From assembly GCA_951406725.2 (NCBI GenBank), contig OX597818.1, positions 15,066,001 through 15,130,000 on the forward strand: a stretch of DNA of 64,000 nucleotides, written 5' to 3'. Shown here one piece after another: positions 15,278 to 62,754 of the stretch. The DNA comes from Octopus vulgaris. Taxonomy: Eukaryota. Made by a program: the position numbers and the translations under genes. A model generated the notes under the pieces. That model made no database searches. It was not told the DNA's origin and saw nothing but the letters and a program-made list of their open reading frames with translations. Each line of letters opens with the position of its first letter. Position 1 is the stretch's first letter.

Positions 15278-15297
15278 TATATTTCTATAATATGGGA

Positions 15298-15790
15298 CCG
15301 GGTATCTGGTAAGAAACTTGCTTCCTAACCACATGCTTCCGTGTTCAGTCCTACTGCGTGGCACCTTGCGCAAGTGTCTTCTCCTACAGCCTCTGGCCGA
15401 CCAAAGCCTTATGAGTCGATTTGAGAAGGAAAAATTTGAGACGGAAAAATACATATATATACGTCGGGCTTCTTTCAGTTTCCATCTACCAAATCCACTC
15501 ATAAGGATTTGGTCGGCCCGATGCTACAGTAGAAGACAATTGCCCAAGGTGCCACGCAGTGGTACTGAACCCGGAACCATGTGTGTGTGTGTGTATGTCT
15601 TTGTATCTGTGTGTTTCCCCATCACCGCTTAACAACTGGTATTGCTGTGTTTATGTCCCCGTAACTTAGTGGTTCGGCGAAATAAACCGATAGAATAAGT
15701 ACCAGACTTAAAAATAAATAAGTACTGGTGTCGATTCATTCGACTAAAAATTCAGCATGGCTGCAGTCTAATGACTGAAACAAATAAAAG
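15298..15790. mobile_element. tRNA-derived SINE pieces in both orientations; uninterrupted copy of the Tx1 target site
   Basis: ggtaagaaacttgcttcctaaccacatgcttccgtgttcagtcc; homologous to 44448-44710 and 62085-62450. Confidence 0.75.
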
Positions 15791-25392: not shown

Positions 25393-26765
25393 AAGGTGGC
25401 GAGCTGGCCGAATCGCTAGCACACCGGGCAATATGCTTATCGACATTTCATACGTTAAGGCGGCAAGCTGGCAGAAACGTTAGCACGCCGGGCGAAATGC
25501 GTAGCCGTGTTTCGTCTGTCATTACGCACTGGAGTCGATATAATCGGCTTAATCTGCCTGTCTGTCCTTGTTTGTCTCCTCTGTGTTTAGCCCCTTGTGG
25601 GTAGTAAAGAAATAAGTATTTTGTCTGCCACTAAGTTCTGAGTTCAAATTCCGCCGAGGTCGACTTTGCCTTTCATCTTTTCGTTACGCACTGGGTTCGA
25701 TGTAATCGACTTAACCCCTTTGTCTGTCCTTGTTTGTCCCCTCTATGTTTAACCCCTTGTGGGCAATAAAGAAATAAAAATCGTTAGCACGCCGCACAAA
25801 ATGCTTAGCTGCACTTCGTCCATCACTACGCTCTGAGGTCCACTTAGTTTTTCATCATATCGGAGGCGATAAGATAGTTGAGCACTGAGGGGGTCGATGT
25901 AATCGATTTGCCCTTCCTGCAGAATTTCAGCTCTGTGCTACTAGTAGACAGGATTATTAAGGTGGCGAGTTGGCAGAAACGTTAGCTCGCCGGGCGAAAT
26001 GCTTAGCGGTATTTCGTCTGCCGTTAAGTTCTGAGTTCAAATTCCGCCGAGGACGACTTTGCCTTTCATCCTTTCGGGGTCGATAAATTAAGTACCAGTT
26101 ACGCACTGGGGTCGATGTAATCGACTTAATACCTATGTCTGTCCTTGTTTGTCCCCTCTATGTTTAACCCCTTGTGGGCAATAAAGAAATATGTATTTCG
26201 TCTGCCGCTACGTTCTGAGTTCAAATTCCGCCGAGGTCGACTTTACCTTTCATCCTTTCGGGGTCGATAAATTAAGTATCAGTTACGCACTGGGGTCGAT
26301 GTAATCGACTTAATACCTATGTCTGTCCTTGTTTGTCCTCTCTGTGTTTAGCCCCTTGTGGGTAGTAAAGAAATAGGTATTTCGTCTGCCGTTACGTTCT
26401 GAGTTCAAATTCCGCCGAAGTCGACTTTGTCTTTCATCCTTTCGGGGTCGATAAATTAAGTACCAGTTACGCACTGGGGTTGATGTAATCGACTTAATCC
26501 GTTTGTCTGTCCTTGTTTTCCCCTCTATGTTTAGCCCTTTGTGGGCAATAAATAAATAAGAATCGTTAGCATGCCGAACAAGATTCTTTACGATATTTCT
26601 TCTGATTTTACGTCCTAAATTCGAATGTTTTTGAGGTCGACTCTACCTTTTATCTTTTCGGATTCATTAAATTAAGTACCAGCTGAGCAGTTGGGGTTGA
26701 TGCAATCGACTAGTCACCCCACAAAATTTCAAACCTTGTACCTGTAATAGAAAGGATTATTATTA
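25393..26765 (+). mobile_element. Nested/tandem array of tRNA-derived SINEs, five units carrying an L1/Tx1-type tail
   Basis: Head aaggyggcgagctggcagaa(a/t)cgttagc; five tails gtctgtccttgtttgtc..gtggg(c/t)a(a/g)taaa(g)aaat ending near 25616, 25777, 26190, 26375 and 26559. Confidence 0.85.
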
Positions 26766-32019: not shown

Positions 32020-32900
32020 GAATTATAACGAGAGTTGGAAAACTCGTTGGAGAGTCAAGCAAAACGTACTGCGGTATTTAGCAATAACCCTTTATGTTCT
32101 AATTTCGAATCATGATGAAGTCAATTTTGGTTTCCGACCCTCAAAAATCGATAAAATAAAGAACCAATCAAGTACTGAGAACAATATAATCGACTGTTTT
32201 TTCTGAATTTGTAATATCGATTTCAAATTTTGGCTCAAGAACAGCAACTTTGATGGAGGGGCTAAGTAGATTGCATCGCTCCCGGAGTTCAATTGCTACT
32301 TATTTTATCAACCCCGAAAGAATGAAAGGCAAAGTCGACCTCGGCGGCATTTGAACTCAGAACGTAGAGACGCACGAAATGCCACGAAGCATTTTGCCCT
32401 GCGTGCTAACGATTTTGCCAGCTCGGCGCCTTTCTAACTTTGTAACATTAGAAATAGCAAGGGCGGTGGATTGGCAGAACCATTAGAACAACTACTTTGT
32501 GATATTTGTTCAGGATCTTTATATTCTGATTTTAAATCTCGTTGCAGTCATGTTTGCCTTTCATCCTTTCGGGGTCAATAAAATAAAATAGTTGTCAAGT
32601 ACTAGGATAGGTATAATTAACTTCCCCCCTCTCCTCAAACTTATTGGTCTTGTGCTTAAATCAGAAATCTTTTCTTGGGTGGTGAAATGCTGAACTGTTG
32701 AAGAGTCGTGTTTCTTAAGGTTCTGAATTCAAAACATACTAAGGTCAACTTTGCTTTTCAACTTTTCTGGGTCGTTAAAATAAAATCCCTGTCGAATACT
32801 GAGATCGATGATATCAAGTAACTCATCAAAACTTTTGGTCTTGTGCCTAGATTAGAAACAAATACAGAAGGTAATCAGATGGCAGAATCATTAGAGAGCC
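32020..32900. mobile_element. Cluster of old tRNA-derived SINEs (same body as the 25393 array, ordinary tails)
   Basis: Repeated gtc(g/a)actttgcctttcatcctttcggggtcgataaa in both orientations; another copy at 33690-33880. Confidence 0.7.
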
Positions 32901-33966
32901 GAATAAATGCTTTTCGGACTCTTTTCACATATTAGCATTGTTTTTTAGATTAGATAGTGTCCAAATGTGTTGAAATTTGATATGGGCCATTTATACATAT
33001 GGTCAACCTAAATCTTTAATATTATGCAAAATTATTTTAATTCTTTTAATTTCTAGTTTGCTTTAATGCTAAATTCAGAAATTTTAAACTTTAGTTCATA
33101 TTTTAATCCGAAATTCATTTGATGTTTAAATTTTAAAACTCCTGTAATGAGGTTAAATTCAACAACTCAACTTATCACATTTCAGACTCACATTTCTCAA
33201 TCTATCATTATTTTATATCCTAGCTAATCAGAGCTTTCTGAACCTCTACATCACAATATAATCACTACTGATATTTCATTCATCCAATACAATTCCTTAT
33301 TATGCTTGATAACACCAATGACCAAATATTAAAGACTTCATTTATATAAATGCGCATGCGTGCGTTGTGTGCGTGCGTGTGTGTGAGTGTGCGTGCGTAT
33401 ACACTCACAAACATACATTCTGTGGGTGACATTTTTAACCGAGACTTTGCAATCGTATCTGATTCTTCAAGTTCTTCAATTTTGTGTATATACATATATT
33501 TACTTGAATACTGACATTTATCAATGGGTTCCCCCATTGTGTTGATATGCCATTTTCTATCATCAATAAACCTGTCGGCATTTTTGCCGACACGGGTATG
33601 CTAGTTATAATATAATATATTAATGTATTCTCCGCCACAGAATTCTGTGGATATTTGTACAACGAAAAGACAATAGTATATAAAACTTAATCCTTTCTGA
33701 AATTTGGTGGGAGGGAATATGTCAATTACATCGACCTCATTGCTAGATTGGCACCTATTTTATCGACCCCGAAAGGATGAAAGGTAAAGTCGACCTCGGT
33801 GACACTTGAACTCAGAGCGAACGAAATGCCGCCAAGCAGTTTGTCCGACGCTCTGACCATTCTACCAGCTCGTTGTCTTAAATGATGTATAATATAATAA
33901 TGTACATCTCACTACAGAATTCTTTAGATATTTGTACAACGAGAAAACGAAATATATAAAACAAAT

Positions 33967-35230: not shown

Positions 35231-35696
35231 AATCCATATTCCTAAAAATGCTGCAAGAAAATATACAAACATAGAAATTGCTTTTTCCTAGTTCCAGCAA
35301 TAGTTCGCCATCATATGCAATTACCATCTGCCTTCATACCCTTTGTTCAATTGATTTTATATCCTGATAGAAATGTTTTTCCTGGTTGTCACTTGTGTCA
35401 CTAAGATGTTCAAGGAATTTATCAAGGTCACTGTGAAGACTGCAGTTTTATACTCATATTTGCTTTCAACTTTTGCAGTTCTCCAGCATGCTGTCGACTA
35501 TTTCGACAGAGTTAGCTGCTTTCTTGTTGCTCAGAAAGTCATTTACAAATGAATTATATGCTGCTGCTTCAATGCAATTCATTGAATTTACTTCCCATCT
35601 TCCATCAATTTTCTTATTTGAGACCCATCAAACATTCCAGCTTTTATCTTTTTACTACTCAGACTGGGAGATGTGCAGCAAATATAGTGAAAGCAT

Positions 35697-36110
35697 TTTA
35701 TAAAAATAAAGCCAACAACGGCTTTTCAAAGTTTACAGAAAATGTTCAACAGAAGATATTACTTCCACTTAGGGTGGAAGCCTATAATAAATTTTCCTCT
35801 AATAGAGGATAACAGTTCCAATCCCATCTCTGTTAGGGGCGGGTCGCAAAAACAAAGTCTAAAACGACTTAAAACAGTTCGAATTTTTACACAAAATTCC
35901 AAAAAGGCAATGCCACAATGGCCACAGAAATATATCAAACAGTTCCTATTTCCCGGTATACCGGGGTGTAGTAAAAATAAAGTTCAAGAAATACAACAAC
36001 GATAACAATCCCAAACAAAAACGGAATCCTATAATAGCAAAACGCTTACCAGCATAAAAAACACAACCACGTCGTGTGACCGGAAACAAGCTTCCTACCA
36101 CACAGCTGCA
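35697..36110 (-). mobile_element. Inverted SINE head plus 5' UTR of L1/Tx1 copy 1
   Basis: Reverse complement reads gctgtgtggtaggaagcttgtttccgg, then tcacacgacgtggttgtgtttttt.., collinear with the 5' UTR of copy 2 (41694-42060). Confidence 0.8.
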
Positions 36111-36678
36111 CTTGAGCCTGCTTCGATTTTTTTTCTTTTAGCATTCGTCCGTAGTCAACATGTAATCTATATCATTCATGCATAAAATATTCGCAATGTA
36201 TATCCGCATTTCCTGATTTTCCATTACTTTTGATATTTATAATAGCAAATTTATTGCTAATAATAGTACAGTAGATTGTCTTAAATCCACTGACTACACA
36301 ATTCAACAAGTAGGCTGTTGTCAGGGCGTGTCGTAACTGATTTGAAGATTTTTCGATATTCTGAACACCAAAAAGTAATTCATTTTTTTACCATCACATC
36401 TAGATTTCAAGATATCCCCCACCCAAATTTCACAATCTTCCTCATTTTCAGAAAAAATCAATGTTTACTTGGGAAATTTAGTTTATTTCGATTTATACGT
36501 TATTCTATTAAGAACCAGGGAAAAACGATGGATAATCAAAGAATGGTCATAGCGTACATTAGTTCCAAGGTTTTTTATGTGGTTGAAAAGCCTTTATTTA
36601 AACCGAGGAAAATCATTCTGCCACTACTCTTTATCAAATTAGACATCATGAAGCAATTTGTTAAAGCTCTGGATAAAG

Positions 36679-39600
36679 ATGCTGGCAGAGATGCCAACAT
36701 TAACACTGTTAAAACATTTTCGGCAGTTTCCGCGGTGGCAACTGAAATTATTGATATGCCAGTCGAAAAACTGAAGGAATACTTCGAAAGAATGAAGGAG
36801 GACTGTGGTATTATGATATCACCCACCTCCAATGCAATAGAGACACAAAGGAAAACTGTTATATTTAAATCCTATTGTCCCGAGAGCAAGCTGTTCAAAC
36901 ATTTCGAAAGGACATAATAGAAAAATGCTTGATCCCTATGTGGAAGGACATTGCATATATCTCAAGGGGAAAGGCATATGCGACAATCGAAGTCAGGTTC
37001 ACAACCGAAAAGAAGGCCCACGGGTACTCTGTGAGCCCTCTGAAAACAAAGGAGGTGGTGCTTCTACCAACCTACATGGGAGGCGCACTTCCCGTGTAAA
37101 GGTGACAGAAGTGCCGCCAGAAATAGACCCACGAGAAGTGATGGCTGCCCTGTTGTTCAACAGGACAGAAAAATAAAATTCTTGCAGATAACATGCACTG
37201 CTCTCCAAATCTAGCTGAGACAGAGCATTTCAGTCATAATTAAGGGGGCACCGGAAGACATAGAAAGGCTTCCAGAGGGGTGCTCGTGGGGGAGAATGTA
37301 GCCCCTTCAAATACAAGTGGAGGGAAAGAAACCCACCTCTTATGAGTGTGGAAAGAAGGGCCACATTTGTTTCGATTGCGAAGAAAGGAAAAAGAGAGAA
37401 GAAAAAAGGAAAAGTGGCAATCTTGCACAGATACGAGGCCCTACATCTGTGAAAAACAACTCCAAGACCACACAGACACCAGTCCCGACAAAGAGAAACA
37501 CTCCCACCCCCTTCTGTTGCGGTGCCGTCCCCCAAACAAACCAACGAAAATACCCAAACCCTGCACACACAAGCCCATACAAAAATAAAATTGCCCACCC
37601 CCTTGAAACCTGAGGCATCTGTTGTTGGTGAAAAGAATACAACTCCCTCAGACAACACTATGGAGGTGGCTGAGTGAGAGTTCTTGACAGTTCGGAAACG
37701 AACACATGCACCTTCCCCATCCATATCCCCCACAGGAAAACGCAGAACGTTACCACAAATTACCAAACAAAGACCCCCGCTCCATCGCCCCAGAAAAAAG
37801 AAGAGACGATACCATTTTGGTAAAATATAATACCAAAGATCTTTACATGGACGAGGTGATTACGAAACACCACACAGCAAAGTTGTACCCTCAACATAGG
37901 AGTATGAACGAGAGGTGTACCTGGATAGGGGAAACCCTATTCAAGCAACTGAAGGATAGGCATTCAAAGGCCATATGGAGGATTTGGGACCTACTTAGTT
38001 ACTTGAAGAAGGAGGAGAAGGAAGGGGCTGACTCACGTGTGGTAAGGTCAGCCCCAGCATCACCAGTTAAGGGTAAGTAGAACCCTTGCTTTTTCCCCAT
38101 TGTTTTAATGGCTACACTTAACCTTGGATGTCTGAATGTGCGTGGTTTGAGCTCGAAGTGGAAGCAAGCCTGTTTCTTCGACGACCTCACATCATACGAT
38201 ATGCATGTGATGGTTGCTGCAAAGACCAAGCTGGACAGTCTACAAACCTTCTCACCCCTCCTGAATGGCTACGAGAAAATCATGTCACCTAGCCAGCCCG
38301 GAGGTCGAGGGGGTATAGTTGTACTGATCCGAAAAGGCTTGGCTCTGCAGACAAGTACAGTCTATGTGGACCATAAAGGTGGGCTGGTCGTCCTTCATGT
38401 GACATACAGCAGTAAGGCCTTCAGGTTGATCGGAATCTACACACCCTGTGCTAGAGGATTACAAACTGATTTTTATCGGCGCCTTGAGATCTTTCTCGTG
38501 ACGTCGTTGACGCGCGCATCGATAGCGTTGGCTCGACTAGTAGGAAAGCGAACTCACGCCTCGTAGGCTTTCAGCTAGCAGATCGTTACAGGCTTGACCA
38601 TCCGAACGTCCCAGAGTGAACCTGGATTAATGGCGACGGAAGGCTCAAGTCTTAGACAGGATAATCATAAGAGCTAGAGATAAGGATAGCTTTAGTTGTC
38701 CACACTTTTGTTCAGGTGACCTACACTGACCATAGAATGGTTAAGTGTATGCCGAACATAGATAGGAAATTTGAGAGAGGATCCGGCTACTGGAAGCTGA
38801 ACAAGTCTATTTTGACTTGCGAGGCATGCCGTAACCGGATTAAGGAACTAGTACAGAGGGCATTTACCGGCGCTGTGGTTAATAACCGGTGGTGGTTCGC
38901 CCTCAAGAGAGTCATTCGTTTCGAGTCTGTTACATTTAGCTACCAGCTAAGACTAGATAAGGCAAGAACAGAAGGACAGCTAGTTAAGGACTTAGAGGAG
39001 GCGTTGAGATTGGGCTCTGCATCCCACATTCTGGCAGCGAGAACGGCCTTGGACCGTCACCGCAAAGCCAAACATGGGGGGTGCAGAGTTCGGGCTAAAG
39101 TACGCGCATTGGGCCGTGAGGGAATTAATGTTGCTGGATAGACTCATACGGTAGAAATCCATCGTGGCAATGCTGCCACAATAAGGTCTCTTGTTGAGGA
39201 CAATGGGAGTTCGGTCAAGGGACAGGACGAGACGAAATGTGTGAGGCACTTTACAAGCACTTCGCCGAGTTGTTCGGGAGGGGCGGGACGCTGGATTATG
39301 GTGGAAGCCCTTAGGGACTTCCTGTATGGCGACTTGTGTTTATCGGCACGAGAGCATGAGTGCTGTGAAGGTCCAATCACAGCCGAGAAGGTGATCGAGG
39401 TACTAGGCGAATGCCCAAGGGACAAGTCGCCGGATCTCGATGGTCTACCCTATGAATTTTATAGAAGCATGACAGCCTTGTTCGGACACCTGCTGGCCAG
39501 CGTCTACGCCAACTGTCAGCAGAATAGGAGAATTTCCAAGTCTGCGAGCTGAGGGGTGGTGACATTGATCAGGAAGGACCCGAGCAAGGAGGACGAAATA

Positions 39601-41680
39601 GGAAATTTCAGGCCCATAACTCTGTTGAACACAAAGTTAAAGATTTTGGCCAAGGTGCTAGCGAAAGGGTTGGCACGAGACGTGGACAGACTTGTGAGGG
39701 AAGCGCAAAGGCGCTATCCCGGGCAGGTCGATCCACGACAATTTCCACCTTATACTCTACACTTTAGAGAGGGTGAGGAAACTTTCTGGCGCAGGGAAGG
39801 GCACTGGTACATTTAGACCAGTCTAATGCATTTGATAAGGTCGACCATCGGTACTTGGCGGCAGTCCTCACCAAGGCTGGCCTGGGTCAGACCTTCCGCG
39901 GTTGGATTGCTGCGTTGAACAGCGATATCGAGTCTGTCATGAAAGTGAATGATTTCTTTGCGAAGCTATTCAGGAATGAGCGTTCAGTGCGTCAAGGATG
40001 TCCCCTACCTCCGCTTTTGTATGTACTGGCTCCTGAGCTATTGCTGCGGAAGTTGGAGGCACTAGGGGGCGCTCCACATGATCTATGGTATGGAAGAGGA
40101 GCTATGGCGTATGTGGATGACATCTCTATCATCGTGGTGGATGAGAGCTAGCTTCCAGTGGTGGAAAAGGCCATCAAAAGTTACCAGGCGGTGGCAGGAG
40201 CAAACTTAGCTCCTGGAGGAGCAAGCCGATGGCGTCCAATAACGTCGTGGGGCGTTGGACGGTAGGTTCTGTTAAGCTGCTCGGAGTCTGGATTGGTCCA
40301 GACCCCCCAAATAGAGAAAATTGGAGTGAGGTGGCCAGCAAGGTGACTACTCTAACCCATATCTAGTCTGGGCGGGCATTATCCTTGCTAGGGAGGGTGG
40401 AGGTGGTGCAGATGTTTATAGCATCAGTAATCACCTACCGTCTGACCGTGGTGCCTTACCCCGATTTGTTGCTGAACAAGTTGGAGAGAATCCTTTTCCA
40501 CTTTTTGTGGAAGGGAGGAAAGTCACTTGTGAAGTGCTCTGTCTGCTGCCAGAAGCCGCTAAAGGGTGGGTTAGGGATGCTTTGGCTGAAGATGCGAAAA
40601 TTCGCGTTACGGTTGAGGCACCTCTGGCTTTACCTGGTTGGAGAGCAGGTCTGGTCACCGCACGTTTGGTTCTATCTTCCGCAGTTAACGTCCTAAACGG
40701 ACATTGGTACATGGATCAAGCAGACACCTAGGCTGGGGTACTGACAATTGGAGTGCCGTTAGGCACTTCAGTTGCTCTCTCAGGCGGGCAATGCCGGCAG
40801 CAGGAGTTCTACTTCGGATTTTTATAGTGGGTTAGTGGAGATTATATTCGAAGACGCATTGTGGGAGACCCTGGTCTATGATGAAAATCAGTTAATGAAC
40901 CTGTTGAGGAGAGCTTTCGGGCCGGGATATCTGCATAATTACCAGAAATCCCTGGCTTGGCAGTGCTTCCGTGCGGCGTTACCTGTTCGCAATTAACTGT
41001 CAAGGCACGGAAGTGCCGTATCGCCGACATGTCCATGGTGCGGAGAGGACAGGGAAGCCGTCTTGCACGCATTTGTGAAGTGTCCGGAATTATCGGGACT
41101 GATAGCTTTCGCAGAACAACTGTTGTCATCGATGGAAAGAGTACAGCTATTAGCTAAGTCTATCATCGAGATTGCGCCGCCTCCTTCCATTAACAGGGAG
41201 AAGAAAGCTTGCTTTTCTGCGTAGTAGCCATACTGAAAGAAACAGAATGGAAGATGCGTATGAAAGGAATAGTGACGGGTACCTAAATGGCCAAGGGTTG
41301 GTCAGCTTTTTTAGTTACCACTTCAGCAGTAAAATCAGGCTGGGGTAGAGGTATCTGTCACAAGAAAGATTCGATAAAAGATGGAAGCTTGTGGCAAGAA
41401 AGCCGGGAGTGAGTGGCACCAGGTAAGTGGAGCCCCGGAAGAAAAGCAAAGGTTCCACACTCGTGGTCGGGTGCCTTTCCTTCAGGAGATGCATTACACG
41501 TGGCAATGTGAAATCATCGGATTTTAAATTTTTATTGTAATCGCAATTTTTAATCGCATTTCACCGTTCATTTAAAACAGAACTTTTAATCGACAAAGCT
41601 TCTTCACTCTGTTATGTTTGTCTGTCCTCGTTTGTCCCCTCTGTGTAATGCCTACATGGCAAATTTTTATGAAATAAAGA
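36679..41680 (+). mobile_element. L1/Tx1-clade LINE copy 1 (ORF1 ~36679-38080, ORF2 ~38108-41425), decayed
   Basis: ORF1 knuckle (S)YECGKKGHICFDC; APE MATLNLGCLNVRGL..TDH..GYWKLN; RT KSPDLDGLP, FRPITLLN, SVRQGCPL, YVDD; C-terminal CPWCGEDREAVLHAFVKC. Confidence 0.92.
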
Positions 41681-41693
41681 AGCTTGCTTCCCA

Positions 41694-44447
41694 TTGTACG
41701 AGGTGGTTCGTGTTTTTTGTACTGGTAGGATATTTTACTACTATTTCGTTGGATTTCTGTTTACTTGTACTGTTGGATTGTTACCATCGTTATTGTTGGA
41801 CTCTGTTTGAACTACTAATTTACGGTTTTACCGGGGAATAAAAATTGTTAATTAATATTTGTTTGGCTATTGTGGCAATATTTTTTACGGACATTTAAAA
41901 AAAAATTGTTGAACTGTGTTTAGTCTTTGCAGTCTAATTTTTGTGTCCCTCCCCTGAACGGGGGTGGGATTTGAACTGTTGTCCTCTGTGAGGGAAAAAA
42001 ATTTATAGGTTTCCCATTTTTTGGTGGAAAACCATTTAATTTAATTTTTGCGATTTGTTGCTTTATGGAGTTAATTTCGACCGAATAATGTCGGTCGAAA
42101 TAATTCATGAGAAATGTACTCTCGTAGAGAGTAATGCAGAAAGTGTTGAACCGATAAAAATGTTTTCGTTGGTTGACGCGGGGGCAACCGAAATTATTGA
42201 TGTCCCTGTGGATAGATTAAACGAATTTTTTGGAAGAATGAAGAAAGAGACGGTGATGTAAAAATATCACCCTCCTCCAATGTTAAAGAAACTGAACGAA
42301 AGACTGTAGTATTTAAATCTTTCTGTCCACAGAACAGAAGATTTAAGCACTTTGAAAAAGAAAAAATTGAGAAGTACCTGTCACCAATATGGAAAGACGT
42401 AGACTATATTGCAAGGGGACAAGCATGTGGAACCATTGAGGTCTGTTTTGCAACTGAAGAGGGGCCCGCGGGTACTCCGTGTGCCCCCTGAAGACAAAGC
42501 GTGGTGCTTCTGCCGACATACATGGGAAGACGCACTTCACGTGTGAGGGTGACAGAAGTACCACCGGAGATCGATCCGAAGGAGGTTATGGACGCCCTGT
42601 TGTTTAACAGGGAGGACAGAATAAAATTCCTCCAAATTACATGCTCTTCCCCTCCCCACCCCCAGAATTGGCTCGGGCAGAGCATTTCAGAAATTGTTCA
42701 GGGGTCGCAGGAGAATATTCAAATGCTTCCTGAGGCAGTGCTCGTGGGCGAGAATTTGGCCCTTAGAATTCAGGTGGAGAGTAGGAAGCCCACCTGTTAC
42801 GAATGTGGGGAAAAGGGCCACATTCGTATAGACTGTGAAGAGAGAGAAAAAAGAAAAGACAAAATGGCGCAGATACCAGGCCTTACACAAACCCCAAAAT
42901 TTGTCCCAAGCCTACACACACACATCAGTCCCCACACAAGTAAAAGTTCCCACTCCCCCAACTGCGGTGCCGGTCCCTAAACAAAACACCTCAAAAACCC
43001 AAACTTTGCACACACGAACCCCAACAAAAACAAAAATACCCGCCCCCTTGAATTTATTGGCACCAAAAGGAAAAAGTGCAACTCCCCCAGACGACACCAT
43101 GGAGGTAGCAGAGGAGGATTATACTGTTGTGCGAAAGAGAATGCATGCACCATCCACATCCATATCCCCTACAAAAAGTAATAAATGTTTAGCACCACAG
43201 ACAGGAAAAAAGACCCCACCCAGTTGTCCCAGAAAAAAAGATAAACCGGTGCTAATCGAGTTTGATACGCGAAATAAATATATAAATGACACTGGAAACG
43301 CACCACACGACAATATTATGCTATGCACAAGGACCTTAAGGAGAGATGTGCCAGGACAGGGGAAACTCTATACAGGCAATATGGAGAATTTTTGATCTGC
43401 CAAATTATCTAAAGAAGGAGGGGGGATGGGCTGACACACGTGTGGTGAGGTCAGCCCCAACGTCACCCGTAAAGAGTAAGTAATGACTGCACTTAACCTT
43501 GGTTGTTTGAATGTGCGTGGTCTGAATTTGAAGTGGAAGCAAGCTTTCTCGACGACCTCAGATCACACGATATACATGTAATGGTTGCTACAGAGACCAA
43601 ACTGGACAGTCTACAAACCTTTTCTGGTCTACGATGAAAATCAGTTAATCAACCTGTTCAGGAGAACATTCGGGTCGGGGTATCTGGATAATTACCAGAA
43701 ATCCCTGGCTTGGCAGAGCTTCCGTGCGGCGCTACCGGTTCGTGACAAGCTATCAAAGCAAGGAAGTGCCGTCTCGCCAACATTCCCGTGATGTGGGCAA
43801 GATAGGGAAATCCTCTTGCACGCATTCGTGGAGTGACCAGAATTATCGGGACTGATAGCTTTTGTCGAACAACTGTTGTCAGTGATGGGAAGAGTACATA
43901 TATCAGCTGAGTCTATTCTTGAGATTGTGCCACCTCCTTCTCTTAGCAGGGGAAGGAAGGCTTATTTTTTCTGCGTAGTAGCCATACTGAAAGAAACAGT
44001 ATGGAAGATGCGTGTGAAAGGCATAGTGACAGGTACCTTTGTCTCTGGTCAGGGGTTGGTCAACATCTTTAGTTACCACTTCAGTAGTCAGATCAGGCTG
44101 GAGTAGAGGTGTCTATCACGAGATATATTTGTGAAAAGATGGACGCCTGTGGTAAGCAAGTTGGGTGCGATTGGCACCAGGTAAGTGCATTCAGGATAAA
44201 AAAGTAAAGGTTCTAACCAGGTGGTCAGATGCCTTTCCTTTATGGAATCCACTGCAAATTGCAATGAACGTTAAATTTTTAAATTGTATATATTGTATCA
44301 TAAAGTGTATCATTATTCGTTAGATCATTTATCATTCGAGACTAATCTTTTAATCAATATAGTAGCTTCCTCACCCTTTTATGTTGGTCTGTCCTTGTTT
44401 GTCCCCTCTTTGTAACGACTTTATGGCAAATATTTATGAAATAAAGG
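41694..44447 (+). mobile_element. L1/Tx1-clade LINE copy 2, full 5' UTR and ORF1, ~2.6-kb deletion in ORF2
   Basis: ORF1 with CYECGEKGHIRIDC; ORF2 start MTALNLGCLNVRGL fused at ~43620 to sequence matching ~40870 of copy 1; TSD agcttgcttccca at 41681-41693 and 44448-44460. Confidence 0.92.
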
Positions 44448-44712
44448 AGCTTGCTTCCCAACCACATGGTTCCGGGTTCAGTCCCACTACATAGCATCTT
44501 TCACAAGTAGCTTCTACTATAACTTCGGGCCGACTAAAGCCTTATGAGTGAAGTTAGTAGACAGAAACTGAAAGAAGCCCTTCGTATATATATATTTATG
44601 TGTGTGTGTGTGTGTGTATACGTGCGTGCACGTATGTCTTTGTGACTGAGTTTGCTCTCCACACTGCTTGACAACCGATGCTGGTGTATTTACGTCCCAG
44701 TAACTTAGCGTT
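44448..44712 (+). mobile_element. Downstream part of the tRNA-derived SINE interrupted by the two LINEs
   Basis: agcttgcttcccaaccacatggttccgggttcagtcccact..gaaagaagccc. Confidence 0.85.
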
Positions 44713-48440: not shown

Positions 48441-49074
48441 TAGTAATTTGTGGTAAATCATTTTACCTTTGCCCATATAATAAAGTAAATGAATTGATTG
48501 CATCGCAATCATTAACATTTATGTATTAACTTTGTTGGGTACTTCACTAGCAGTATATTGGATATATACTGCTTCCCATTTGCTTGGCAGGCCGCCATTT
48601 TAAAATGTTTTTGTTTAATAATGTTATTGTTTTTGTTGAATGAAATTTGTTGAAAAAAAAAATCCTCAGTAATTATGTACCAACCCAGTTTCTGACTTTG
48701 AAATCCATTCAGAAAGCTTTGGGTGACCCAAGGCTATAGTATAAAACATTTGCTCACGTGGACTGAACCCGAAACCATGTGCTTGGGAAGCAAACTTCTT
48801 ACTCAACATGCACGTGTTACGAATAGGCGAGCACTTTGTAACTGCTGCACATTGCAGTATACATATTGACTTTACCCTTCGTTTGATTGATTAATTAGTC
48901 AGAAGTACAGAACAGCTGGCTACCAAGCTATTCTTCTCAAAGCTAATATACATTTTCAGATTGTCGTAATACCAACTAGAGAATTTACATAGCGTGTTTT
49001 ATTTCCACAGAGAGCTTAAAGACCTAATAGCCTAAATTTGCTTTATTCCAATTATCCCTCGTGTGTGTGTATAC

Positions 49075-61119: not shown

Positions 61120-62084
61120 TTTCTATCGCCCCACCACCGTACATATCTCTATGAGATATTTAGAAATTTAATATTTCTAAACATTATCAAAACATGAAGG
61201 AAAAACAAAACAAATATGCTTTGTTTTCTTGCAGACACACCAATGTACTATAGCCGTAGTCTTTCTCGTTGTTCACCAACAGATCTTCCCTCTGAAAAAA
61301 TTAGTGGAATCAGTCGATCTCCATACACAAATGATTTTCCTCCCGAAACTTATAAAAAAAGTACACATATTAGGCGCACCTTTCTATAAGCTGCACTCTA
61401 AATTTTCCAGGTAAAAAATAGCAGCTTATACACTGGAAAATATGATAATTGTAGTGGCAGTGAGAATTTGGTTCGCTAGTTTCTAGTTGATAGTGAAGAA
61501 ATGGTTGTCTGCCAACAGGCAAGAAATGAGTAAAGGAATGCACGATGCTGACTAGAAAGGATAAAGGTGGCATTGTCTTCACTCGACATACGAAAATAAC
61601 AGATTGGTGACATTTAGTAGAGATGATCCTGAAGTTGTTCCTCTTCGATTACTATTGCAAACAACAGTAGCTTTTTTCAACTGAATACACGTCGTTGATT
61701 GGTTAAAATTACCAAAATACGACAACTTTAACACGAAATAACTTCTAAAATAGGAAACTTTTTCAGAAATGATCAAAGTAAACCGTCTTCGGCGTGAGAA
61801 ATTCCACCGGTATATGAAGTTTCAAACTGTTCAGTTAAAAAATATTGATTAACAAAAATCTGTGCCAAACTGAACAGACCCTCTCTCTCTCTCTCCCCTC
61901 TCTCTCTCTCTCCCTCTCTCTCTCTCTCGCTCCCCCCCCTCTCTCTCTCTCTTTGTTTATTTATCTTTTGTCTTTCCTTTTTTACAATCTTAAAATCTGT
62001 CACTGTTCCTCTCTTTAATTCCATGTCTGTTTCTTTCACTCACCCTGCCTCTCTATCTCCCTCTCTTTCTCTCTATGTTTATTC

Positions 62085-62450
62085 GTTCATTCTTTTATTT
62101 GTTTCAATCATTTGACTGCGGCCATGCTGGACCACCGCATTTGGTCAAACAAATCGACCTCAGGACTTATTCTTTGTAAGCCTGGTACTAATTCTATCGG
62201 TTATTCTTCTGAACCACTAAGTTACGCAGACGTAAACATACGAACATCGGTTGTCAGCGATGGTGGGGGTAGAAACACAGACACACATACACATATATAC
62301 ACGACAGGCTTCTTTCAGTTTCTGTCTACCAGATCCACTCACAAGGCTTTGGTCGGCCCAAGAAGACACTTGTCCAATGTGCCACGCAGTGGGACTGAAC
62401 CCGGAACCATGTTGTTGGTAAGCAAGCTACTTACTACACAGCCAGTCCTG
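62085..62450 (-). mobile_element. Full tRNA-derived SINE of the family targeted by the Tx1 LINEs
   Basis: Minus strand ggctgtgtagtaagtagcttgcttaccaacaacatggttccgggttcagtccc..gactgaaac-like tail. Confidence 0.8.
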
Positions 62451-62754
62451 CGCCTCTCTTTCCTTTTTATTTCAATCTCAACACCTGTCACTGTTCCTTT
62501 CATATCTGTTTCTTTCACTCCTTTTTCTCCTCTCTCTATCTCTCTGTCTCTCTCTTTAACTAACACGAAATAACTTTTGTCTAGAAATTGTCTTCAGTGT
62601 ATTTCACATAGTCTTGCGTTTAAATCTATGTCGTTAGGTTTTTCTGTAGGTTCCCACTGGACAATAACACAGTTAGTTCTCATTTTCATTTATTCAATGT
62701 CTAAAGTGAGTTTTGCCACATATACCTAAACATTGACCTCTATGTTTTCACTCT

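Follow-up and report, generated by a model that had tools for sequence, protein, structure and literature searches.

The DNA analyzed here is a 64,000-nucleotide stretch of the Octopus vulgaris genome (assembly GCA_951406725.2, contig OX597818.1, positions 15,066,001 to 15,130,000 of the forward strand), referred to below as the window and numbered from its first letter. It contains two decayed long interspersed nuclear elements (LINEs) of the L1 group, probably of the Tx1 clade, which stand head to tail inside one split short interspersed nuclear element (SINE), designated SINE-A. The 5' head of this SINE (36097-36120, minus strand, with an A-box-like motif at 36107-36098) is followed by a left copy of the target site (36080-36096, minus strand, 15-17 bp) and by the inverted 5' untranslated region (UTR) of LINE copy 1 (35690-36079, minus strand), which shares ~69% identity with the beginning of copy 2. 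The body of copy 1 occupies 36681-41676 and copy 2 occupies 41694-44443, both on the plus strand. A middle target copy separates the two LINEs (41677-41693) and a right target copy follows copy 2 (44444-44460), both identified on the plus strand by a 13-mer match and by junction alignment, after which the 3' remainder of SINE-A (44461-44710, plus strand) carries a B-box-like motif at 44475-44484.

SINE-A is a short, dispersed and multicopy element, with five head-bearing or near-head copies in the 64 kb including the split one. Alignment of its three unsplit copies (15295-15423 on the plus strand, with an empty target at 15311-15327; a decayed copy at 48686-48803 on the minus strand, empty target 48800-48784; and a full copy at 62080-62456 on the minus strand, empty target 62432-62416) against the three junctions of the locus resolved one SINE with one cut point: the 5' head runs into the left target copy, and the 3' part restarts at 44461 and matches the unsplit copies. 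These results agree with a first-pass annotation of the sequence, which had placed the target at three positions, had the SINE resume after copy 2 and had reported uninterrupted SINEs elsewhere in the window (those beginning at 15295 and 62456, to which the alignment adds the one at 48803). The 13-mer that it proposed as the target is present: two sites, 41681-41693 and 44448-44460, match it fully, and the minus strand at 36080-36092 matches it in all but 3 letters. The duplication itself is longer, 14-17 bp, and is best parsed as 17 bp (41677-41693 and 44444-44460, 1 mismatch in 17). The 17-bp parse is preferred because both LINEs, and a tail-sharing SINE described below, then end in AAATA (GAAATA being the 3' terminus of both LINEs), and because unsplit SINEs read GT and then AAG. 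The left target copy departs from the other two at 4 and 5 of 17 letters, two of these being its last two.

An alternative named in the same annotation as a refutation fails on this arrangement. The 13-mer is not a piece of the LINE 3' UTR, since the motif lies ahead of each LINE 5' end as well and the SINE 5' half stands before copy 1. Occurrences of the 13-mer at up to 3 mismatches exceed background only modestly (28 found against 13.1 expected), and this count was not used as evidence for targeting. A random single insertion at exactly this SINE-A nucleotide and in this orientation would have a probability of ~3e-5, given 4 such sites per 64 kb.

Copy 1 comprises a broken first open reading frame (ORF1), a broken ORF2 and a 3' UTR; on the plus strand of its ORF2 we located an endonuclease from 38108, a reverse transcriptase (RT) near 39340-40210 (RVT_1, E 1.6e-9) and a zf-RVT domain near 40950-41090 (E 1.3e-7). 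Copy 2 comprises a 5' UTR, a broken ORF1 with a zf-CCHC match (E 1.3e-4), the start of the endonuclease, the ORF2 C-terminus and a 3' UTR. It lacks ~2.6 kb, with a junction near 43623, a loss that takes in the whole RT and the larger part of the endonuclease; this gap may reflect either a later deletion or descent from an RT-less passenger family. The start of copy 1 ORF2 had no Pfam match, and its best matches among solved structures were L1-EN chains (a weak E of 0.026). P0017, a relative of full length, can be aligned along copy 1, and the solved structure nearest to it is human L1 ORF2p. Between them the two copies show a (weak) apurinic/apyrimidinic endonuclease (APE) start, an RT, a C-terminal zinc-binding domain, a separate ORF1 and a target duplication, and on these sequence features they are L1-group non-LTR retrotransposons. 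Membership of the Tx1 clade is likely: the elements show a target-sequence preference (in a biased contig sample) and a CCHC knuckle in ORF1, a feature typical of Tx1, though not unique to it. No named Tx1 reference was among the protein matches retrieved, in which a hypothetical protein of Argonauta hians was the sole named close relative; the ESM Atlas returned only unnamed RT clusters, and DNA-pattern and protein-based scans of metagenome, prokaryote and viral contigs yielded no related loci. Another close ORF2 relative, P0022, is filed under the name of a bacterial metagenome-assembled genome and is probably animal DNA in that assembly.

The behavior of related elements was surveyed in public contigs under five organism labels, aligned on the copy 1/copy 2 junction with the window as reference. 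The main survey used reference positions 41640-41740 and four runs (X2, X19, X20 and X17, corresponding to labels B, D, E and C), in which 367 contigs aligned and 87 had a non-fitting part; the junction counts in this paragraph are among the rows listed. Runs with a small fraction of shared words were counted only if aligned, as X17 was. Among the contigs whose fit to the reference stops between 41678 and 41693, 44 of 55 fall in rows with a consensus that runs on into SINE-A, 4 in partly SINE-like rows and 7 in rows of other or mixed sequence; SINE-A continuations for X2, X19, X20 and X17 are 10/14, 9/11, 3/6 and 22/24, respectively. This tally omits rows with loose ends before the match and a row at 41718, an X20 contig that passes through the target into another LINE start. 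Summed depth at 41680-83 amounts to 97%, 99%, 99% and 89% of that at 41672-75 in the four runs, and falls to background level past 41695. In a further run (X18, label A), SINE-A follows 41693 in 5 contigs, and a variant LINE end appears in two rows that depart after 41666 (X18 and X2), the longer of which enters the target motif. Two raw-read runs yielded too few reads to count (0 and 6). Some contigs may represent the present locus or its alleles, and depth is not equivalent to copy number. In run X17 (label C), the depth of the LINE 3' end lies far above that of the other labels, possibly due to an abundant short passenger with the same tail.

Because LINE 3' ends enter the same SINE in the same register under five labels, the site preference is, as judged from these contigs, a property of the family, whose members under other labels mostly end at the same base. 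The annotation had anticipated a family preference for the SINE site and had named random flanks in other copies as its refutation; in this survey, which is biased toward on-target copies, other copies mostly lack random flanks. The same junctions could arise by hitchhiking, if a source LINE had once inserted in a SINE and its transcripts now carried the SINE 3' part, so that targeting would be only apparent. The survey leaves room for this in that it covers 3' junctions, 5' junctions being barely sampled at the low depth past 41695. We nevertheless regard hitchhiking as very unlikely: a SINE 5' half stands before copy 1 and the target is duplicated, only the 17-mer and no SINE continuation lies between the two copies, the SINE continuations vary among contig rows, and the tail-sharing SINE marks GAAATA as a shared end.

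The two LINE copies are 69% identical in their 5' part and 78% in their 3' part, and their differences are concentrated at third codon positions: across four aligned coding segments, 122 of 347 third positions differ (35%), compared to 105 of 705 first and second positions (15%; Fisher p = 2e-13), with the short endonuclease segment alone lacking the excess (2/20 vs 6/42). We read this excess as divergence under selection in separate source lineages. It upholds the earlier proposal of independent insertions rather than a duplication, since a tandem duplicate decaying in place would lack it. The adjacency and homology of the copies, and the abundance of SINEs, given as ~11.6% of an octopus genome (PMC13282606), might instead suggest that one insertion occurred by chance and was then duplicated in tandem, or that the assembly is at fault. 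Provided that the codon alignment is right, this is scarcely credible in light of the identity of only 69-78% with its strong third-position excess, of the use of the same site in other genomes, and of contigs of ~1.1-1.3 kb from three runs that span the copy 1/copy 2 junction with 0-2 differences, albeit with fewer than 31 letters on its left. Copy 1 probably inserted first and copy 2 later, at the regenerated downstream site; this order, weakly indicated, is suggested because, of the three target copies, the middle one and the right one resemble each other most closely (1 mismatch vs 4-5).

The minus-strand orientation of the left target copy, which the annotation recorded as inverted without recognizing a wider rearrangement, belongs to a block of about 1 kb (35690-36680, breakpoints approximate) in which upstream flank, SINE-A 5' head, left target copy and copy 1 5' UTR are jointly flipped. 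The 5' part of copy 2 (41679-42014) matches 36094 to 35776 on the minus strand (~69% over 335 bp), and from 42157 onward it matches the plus strand from 36711; the body of copy 1 thus begins near 36681 and not at 36095, and copy 1, with its 5' UTR lying within the inverted block, is complete at the 5' side. The block may be a genomic inversion that followed insertion or a local misassembly. An ATGCT 5-mer lies in inverted orientation at both breakpoints (about 35690 and 36680), and an inversion of ~1 kb through this 5-bp microhomology is likely; the breakpoints are only rough, as permissive realignment over-extended in AT-rich DNA. Twin priming was ruled out as the source, since the SINE head and ~560 bp of upstream flank were flipped along with the 5' UTR. 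The inversion also splits both a transposase-like frame and the LINE 5' UTR; the frames on its two sides look like one DNA transposase motif series, a likeness for which searches gave no confirmation.

The box-like motifs of SINE-A are spaced as in a tRNA (TGG at 8-10 and GTTC at 53-56 in hand numbering), and this spacing points to a tRNA origin, with which the title of a 1994 paper by Ohshima and Okada is in line. Neither ARAGORN nor Rfam returned a tRNA match for the heads of SINE-A or of the tail-sharing SINE, the Rfam matches obtained being discarded as microsatellite noise, and the SINE-A head folds no better than shuffles. In the split copy, the A- and B-box-like motifs now lie 8.4 kb apart and in inverted relation, and because of this its RNA polymerase III (Pol III) promoter is presumably lost. 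A replacement B box supplied by the LINE 5' end was considered and dropped, the match being poor and different between the two copies.

The tail-sharing SINE, SINE-B, which the annotation had missed, forms a nested array at 25394-26711 on the plus strand; its final ~55 nt are similar to the 3' end of the LINE and close with AAATA. The resemblance includes a nearly identical block of 27-30 nt, and SINE-B is likely mobilized by the present LINE or a sister family. All 5 such ends in the window adjoin a head of the SINE-B type itself, with 3 of the junctions near position 49-50 of that head and 2 near 16-18, a pattern that could reflect either self-targeting or a fixed dimer or tandem amplification. 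SINE-B-related heads with a different tail also occur at 32431, at 33872 (minus strand) and inside the array. Although they differ in sequence, the LINE site and the two SINE-B sites all fall within or between A/B-box-like motifs, which would fit LINE machinery that is held at SINE promoters by Pol III factors (TFIIIC/TFIIIB) and cuts the nearest L1-like site, much as TRE5-A is reported to target the TFIIIC/IIIB complex (PMC3159450). We consider such tethering quite unlikely. By the time of the second insertion the A and B boxes of the SINE had already been separated by kilobases, the SINE-A and SINE-B sites lie at unequal distances from the boxes, no LINE end entered SINE-B or a recognizable tRNA gene among the survey rows listed, and TRE5-A inserts ~50 bp outside the gene whereas the LINEs here lie inside the head.

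The reading that we favor, at a probability of roughly 0.65, is that sequence recognition by the LINE endonuclease sets the site and that insertion proceeds by target-primed reverse transcription. On the established geometry of that process, the enzyme would nick the bottom strand where the duplication starts on the left (5'-TCTT/AC-3'), at position 20/21 of tRNA-like numbering and just after the A box, and LINE RNA ending in GAAATA would be copied from this nick. A top-strand cut ~17 nt downstream (position 37/38) would then give rise to the duplication, which covers positions 21-37. The annotation's placement of the cut at the anticodon-arm equivalent would therefore be right for the second cut, in the anticodon-loop equivalent, and wrong for the priming nick. 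Because each insertion would rebuild the target, a later copy could land at the same base and copies could stack: copy 1 would have landed first, copy 2 would have used the regenerated downstream site, where the A box is absent, and the later ~1 kb inversion via microhomology would have flipped the SINE head together with the copy 1 5' UTR. An abundant SINE would in this way offer a renewable, low-cost landing pad, while each split copy would lose its Pol III promoter. Endonuclease recognition is ranked first because Tx1L-EN acts in this manner in vitro and because the register is fixed. Tx1L-EN is reported to cut almost exclusively its target in vitro (PMC1950540), and Tx1 families are described as targeting other transposons and stacking around the target-site duplication (TSD) (PMC4494074). 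The endonuclease alone may account for the specificity.

Several observations weigh against this reading. The predicted nick resembles the loose L1 consensus 5'-TTTT/AA-3', and the predicted hairpin loop of the decayed copy 1 endonuclease, with 9 residues between anchors as counted by eye, is L1-like, the loop having 11 residues in Tx1L and TRAS1 (PMC1950540). SINE-B has the LINE's tail yet adjoins different sequences, which a single strict endonuclease does not explain. As for the survey, the query itself holds the target, so that on-target copies align more easily; the rows are consensuses and not single contigs, and the counts apply to the listed rows only; only 87 of 367 contigs had a non-fitting part; and of the 55, at least 7 have no clear on-target end.

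The main rival, RNA assistance, places specificity chiefly in the RNA: a loose L1-type endonuclease would nick many sites, of which only the SINE-A site would prime well, either through target letters at the 3' end of a read-through RNA or through pairing of the target with a motif located 68-80 nt ahead of the RNA's 3' end. Such a target-related motif does stand at the same place in both tails (41596-41608 and 44363-44375), and in copy 1 the tail and target together fold with a closing stem of 9 bp (z -2.1), a result equalled by 6 of 200 shuffles. The L1-like nick likewise suits this explanation, as does the AATAAA hexamer that arises where the LINE terminus meets the two opening letters of the target (41672-41678 and 44439-44445). 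Nevertheless, tail-target tests reached uncorrected p < 0.05 in only 4 of 60 cases (0.008-0.039), about the chance level and with one of them in sense orientation, the copy 2 motif suits both orientations of the target equally, the target being partly palindromic, the copy 2 tail folds with the target no better than shuffles (z -0.15), and no SINE-B tail-target test passed. LINE tails alone also fold no better than shuffles. These tests are suggestive at best, and we consider a mainly RNA-based specificity unlikely. The AATAAA at the LINE/target joint raises the separate possibility that the target completes a polyadenylation signal.

A broader and more speculative proposal, which we hold to be improbable, is that octopod Tx1-like LINEs and their passenger SINEs partition SINE promoter heads among them, with the site co-set by pairing between RNA tail and target, and that the LINE thereby preys on and limits SINEs. 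If true, this predation of a LINE on SINEs would reverse the usual parasitism, and specificity could be re-aimed by a change in the RNA.

Target-specific L1/Tx1-type LINEs in transposons are known, and what may be new here is a SINE promoter head as the target: a search of the open-access literature found no description of a LINE with such a target, though it did not cover Repbase, where one may already be recorded. According to the available portions of the literature, targets of the Tx1 clade include Tx1D, Mariner-N4, Harbinger, long terminal repeat (LTR) elements, small-RNA genes and microsatellites (PMC4494074, PMC3706591, PMC6719617), and the accessible parts of octopus repeat papers describe L1-Tx1 families and abundant SINEs with no mention there of a target (PMC13282606, PMC8967140). 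The closest likeness is to the Tx1-Mar LINEs and SINEU of crocodilians, in which Tx1 LINEs also prefer an abundant transposon and stack around the TSD (16 bp for SINEU-3), and in which Tx1-Mar mobilizes passenger SINEs with the same preference (PMC4494074). The Tx1-Mar target is a Mariner DNA transposon, whereas here it is a tRNA-like SINE promoter head, hit at apparently one nucleotide under several labels, and the SINE-B target differs from that of the LINE, unlike those of the SINEU passengers (PMC4494074). Tx1L in Tx1D of Xenopus is likewise an APE-type LINE with a fixed site in a transposon (PMC4494074, PMC1950540, PMC6719617), although its target is a piggyBac-type DNA transposon and its endonuclease specificity is proven in vitro, in contrast with the SINE head and the proposed specificity described here.

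Other elements share parts of this behavior. Keno (U2), Mutsu (5S rRNA) and Dewa (tRNA-Leu spacer) also hit multicopy small-RNA sequences, but these are host RNA genes or spacers rather than the head of a dispersed retroposon (PMC4494074, PMC3706591). Dada inserts by sequence recognition in tRNA sequence near the A box and anticodon arm, as the LINEs here would in a tRNA-like head, yet Dada elements are DDE DNA transposons of true tRNA genes with short TSDs (PMC8869645). TRE5-A of Dictyostelium is a non-LTR element that is similarly associated with Pol III promoters, with an insertion position that is set by TFIIIC/IIIB and lies ~50 bp upstream of the gene and not, as here, inside the head (PMC3159450).

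SINE promoter heads would thus join the target list of site-specific LINEs. With diverged families in several species using one short site near the loose L1 consensus, the system would offer a natural series for how an APE endonuclease becomes specific, a question that bears on site-directed gene insertion tools; the present locus contributes independent lineages at one site, an inversion and a cross-label junction survey. For annotation, nested LINE-SINE stacks with regenerated targets will skew repeat ages and counts in octopus genomes. Two smaller features of the elements involved can be added. At 15295-15583, two SINE-A copies lie tail to tail in opposite orientation, and the minus-strand one begins just past the target site. 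In LINE copy 2, a near-perfect short inverted repeat (42066-42093) surrounds the probable ORF1 start and is, by eye, not evident in copy 1.

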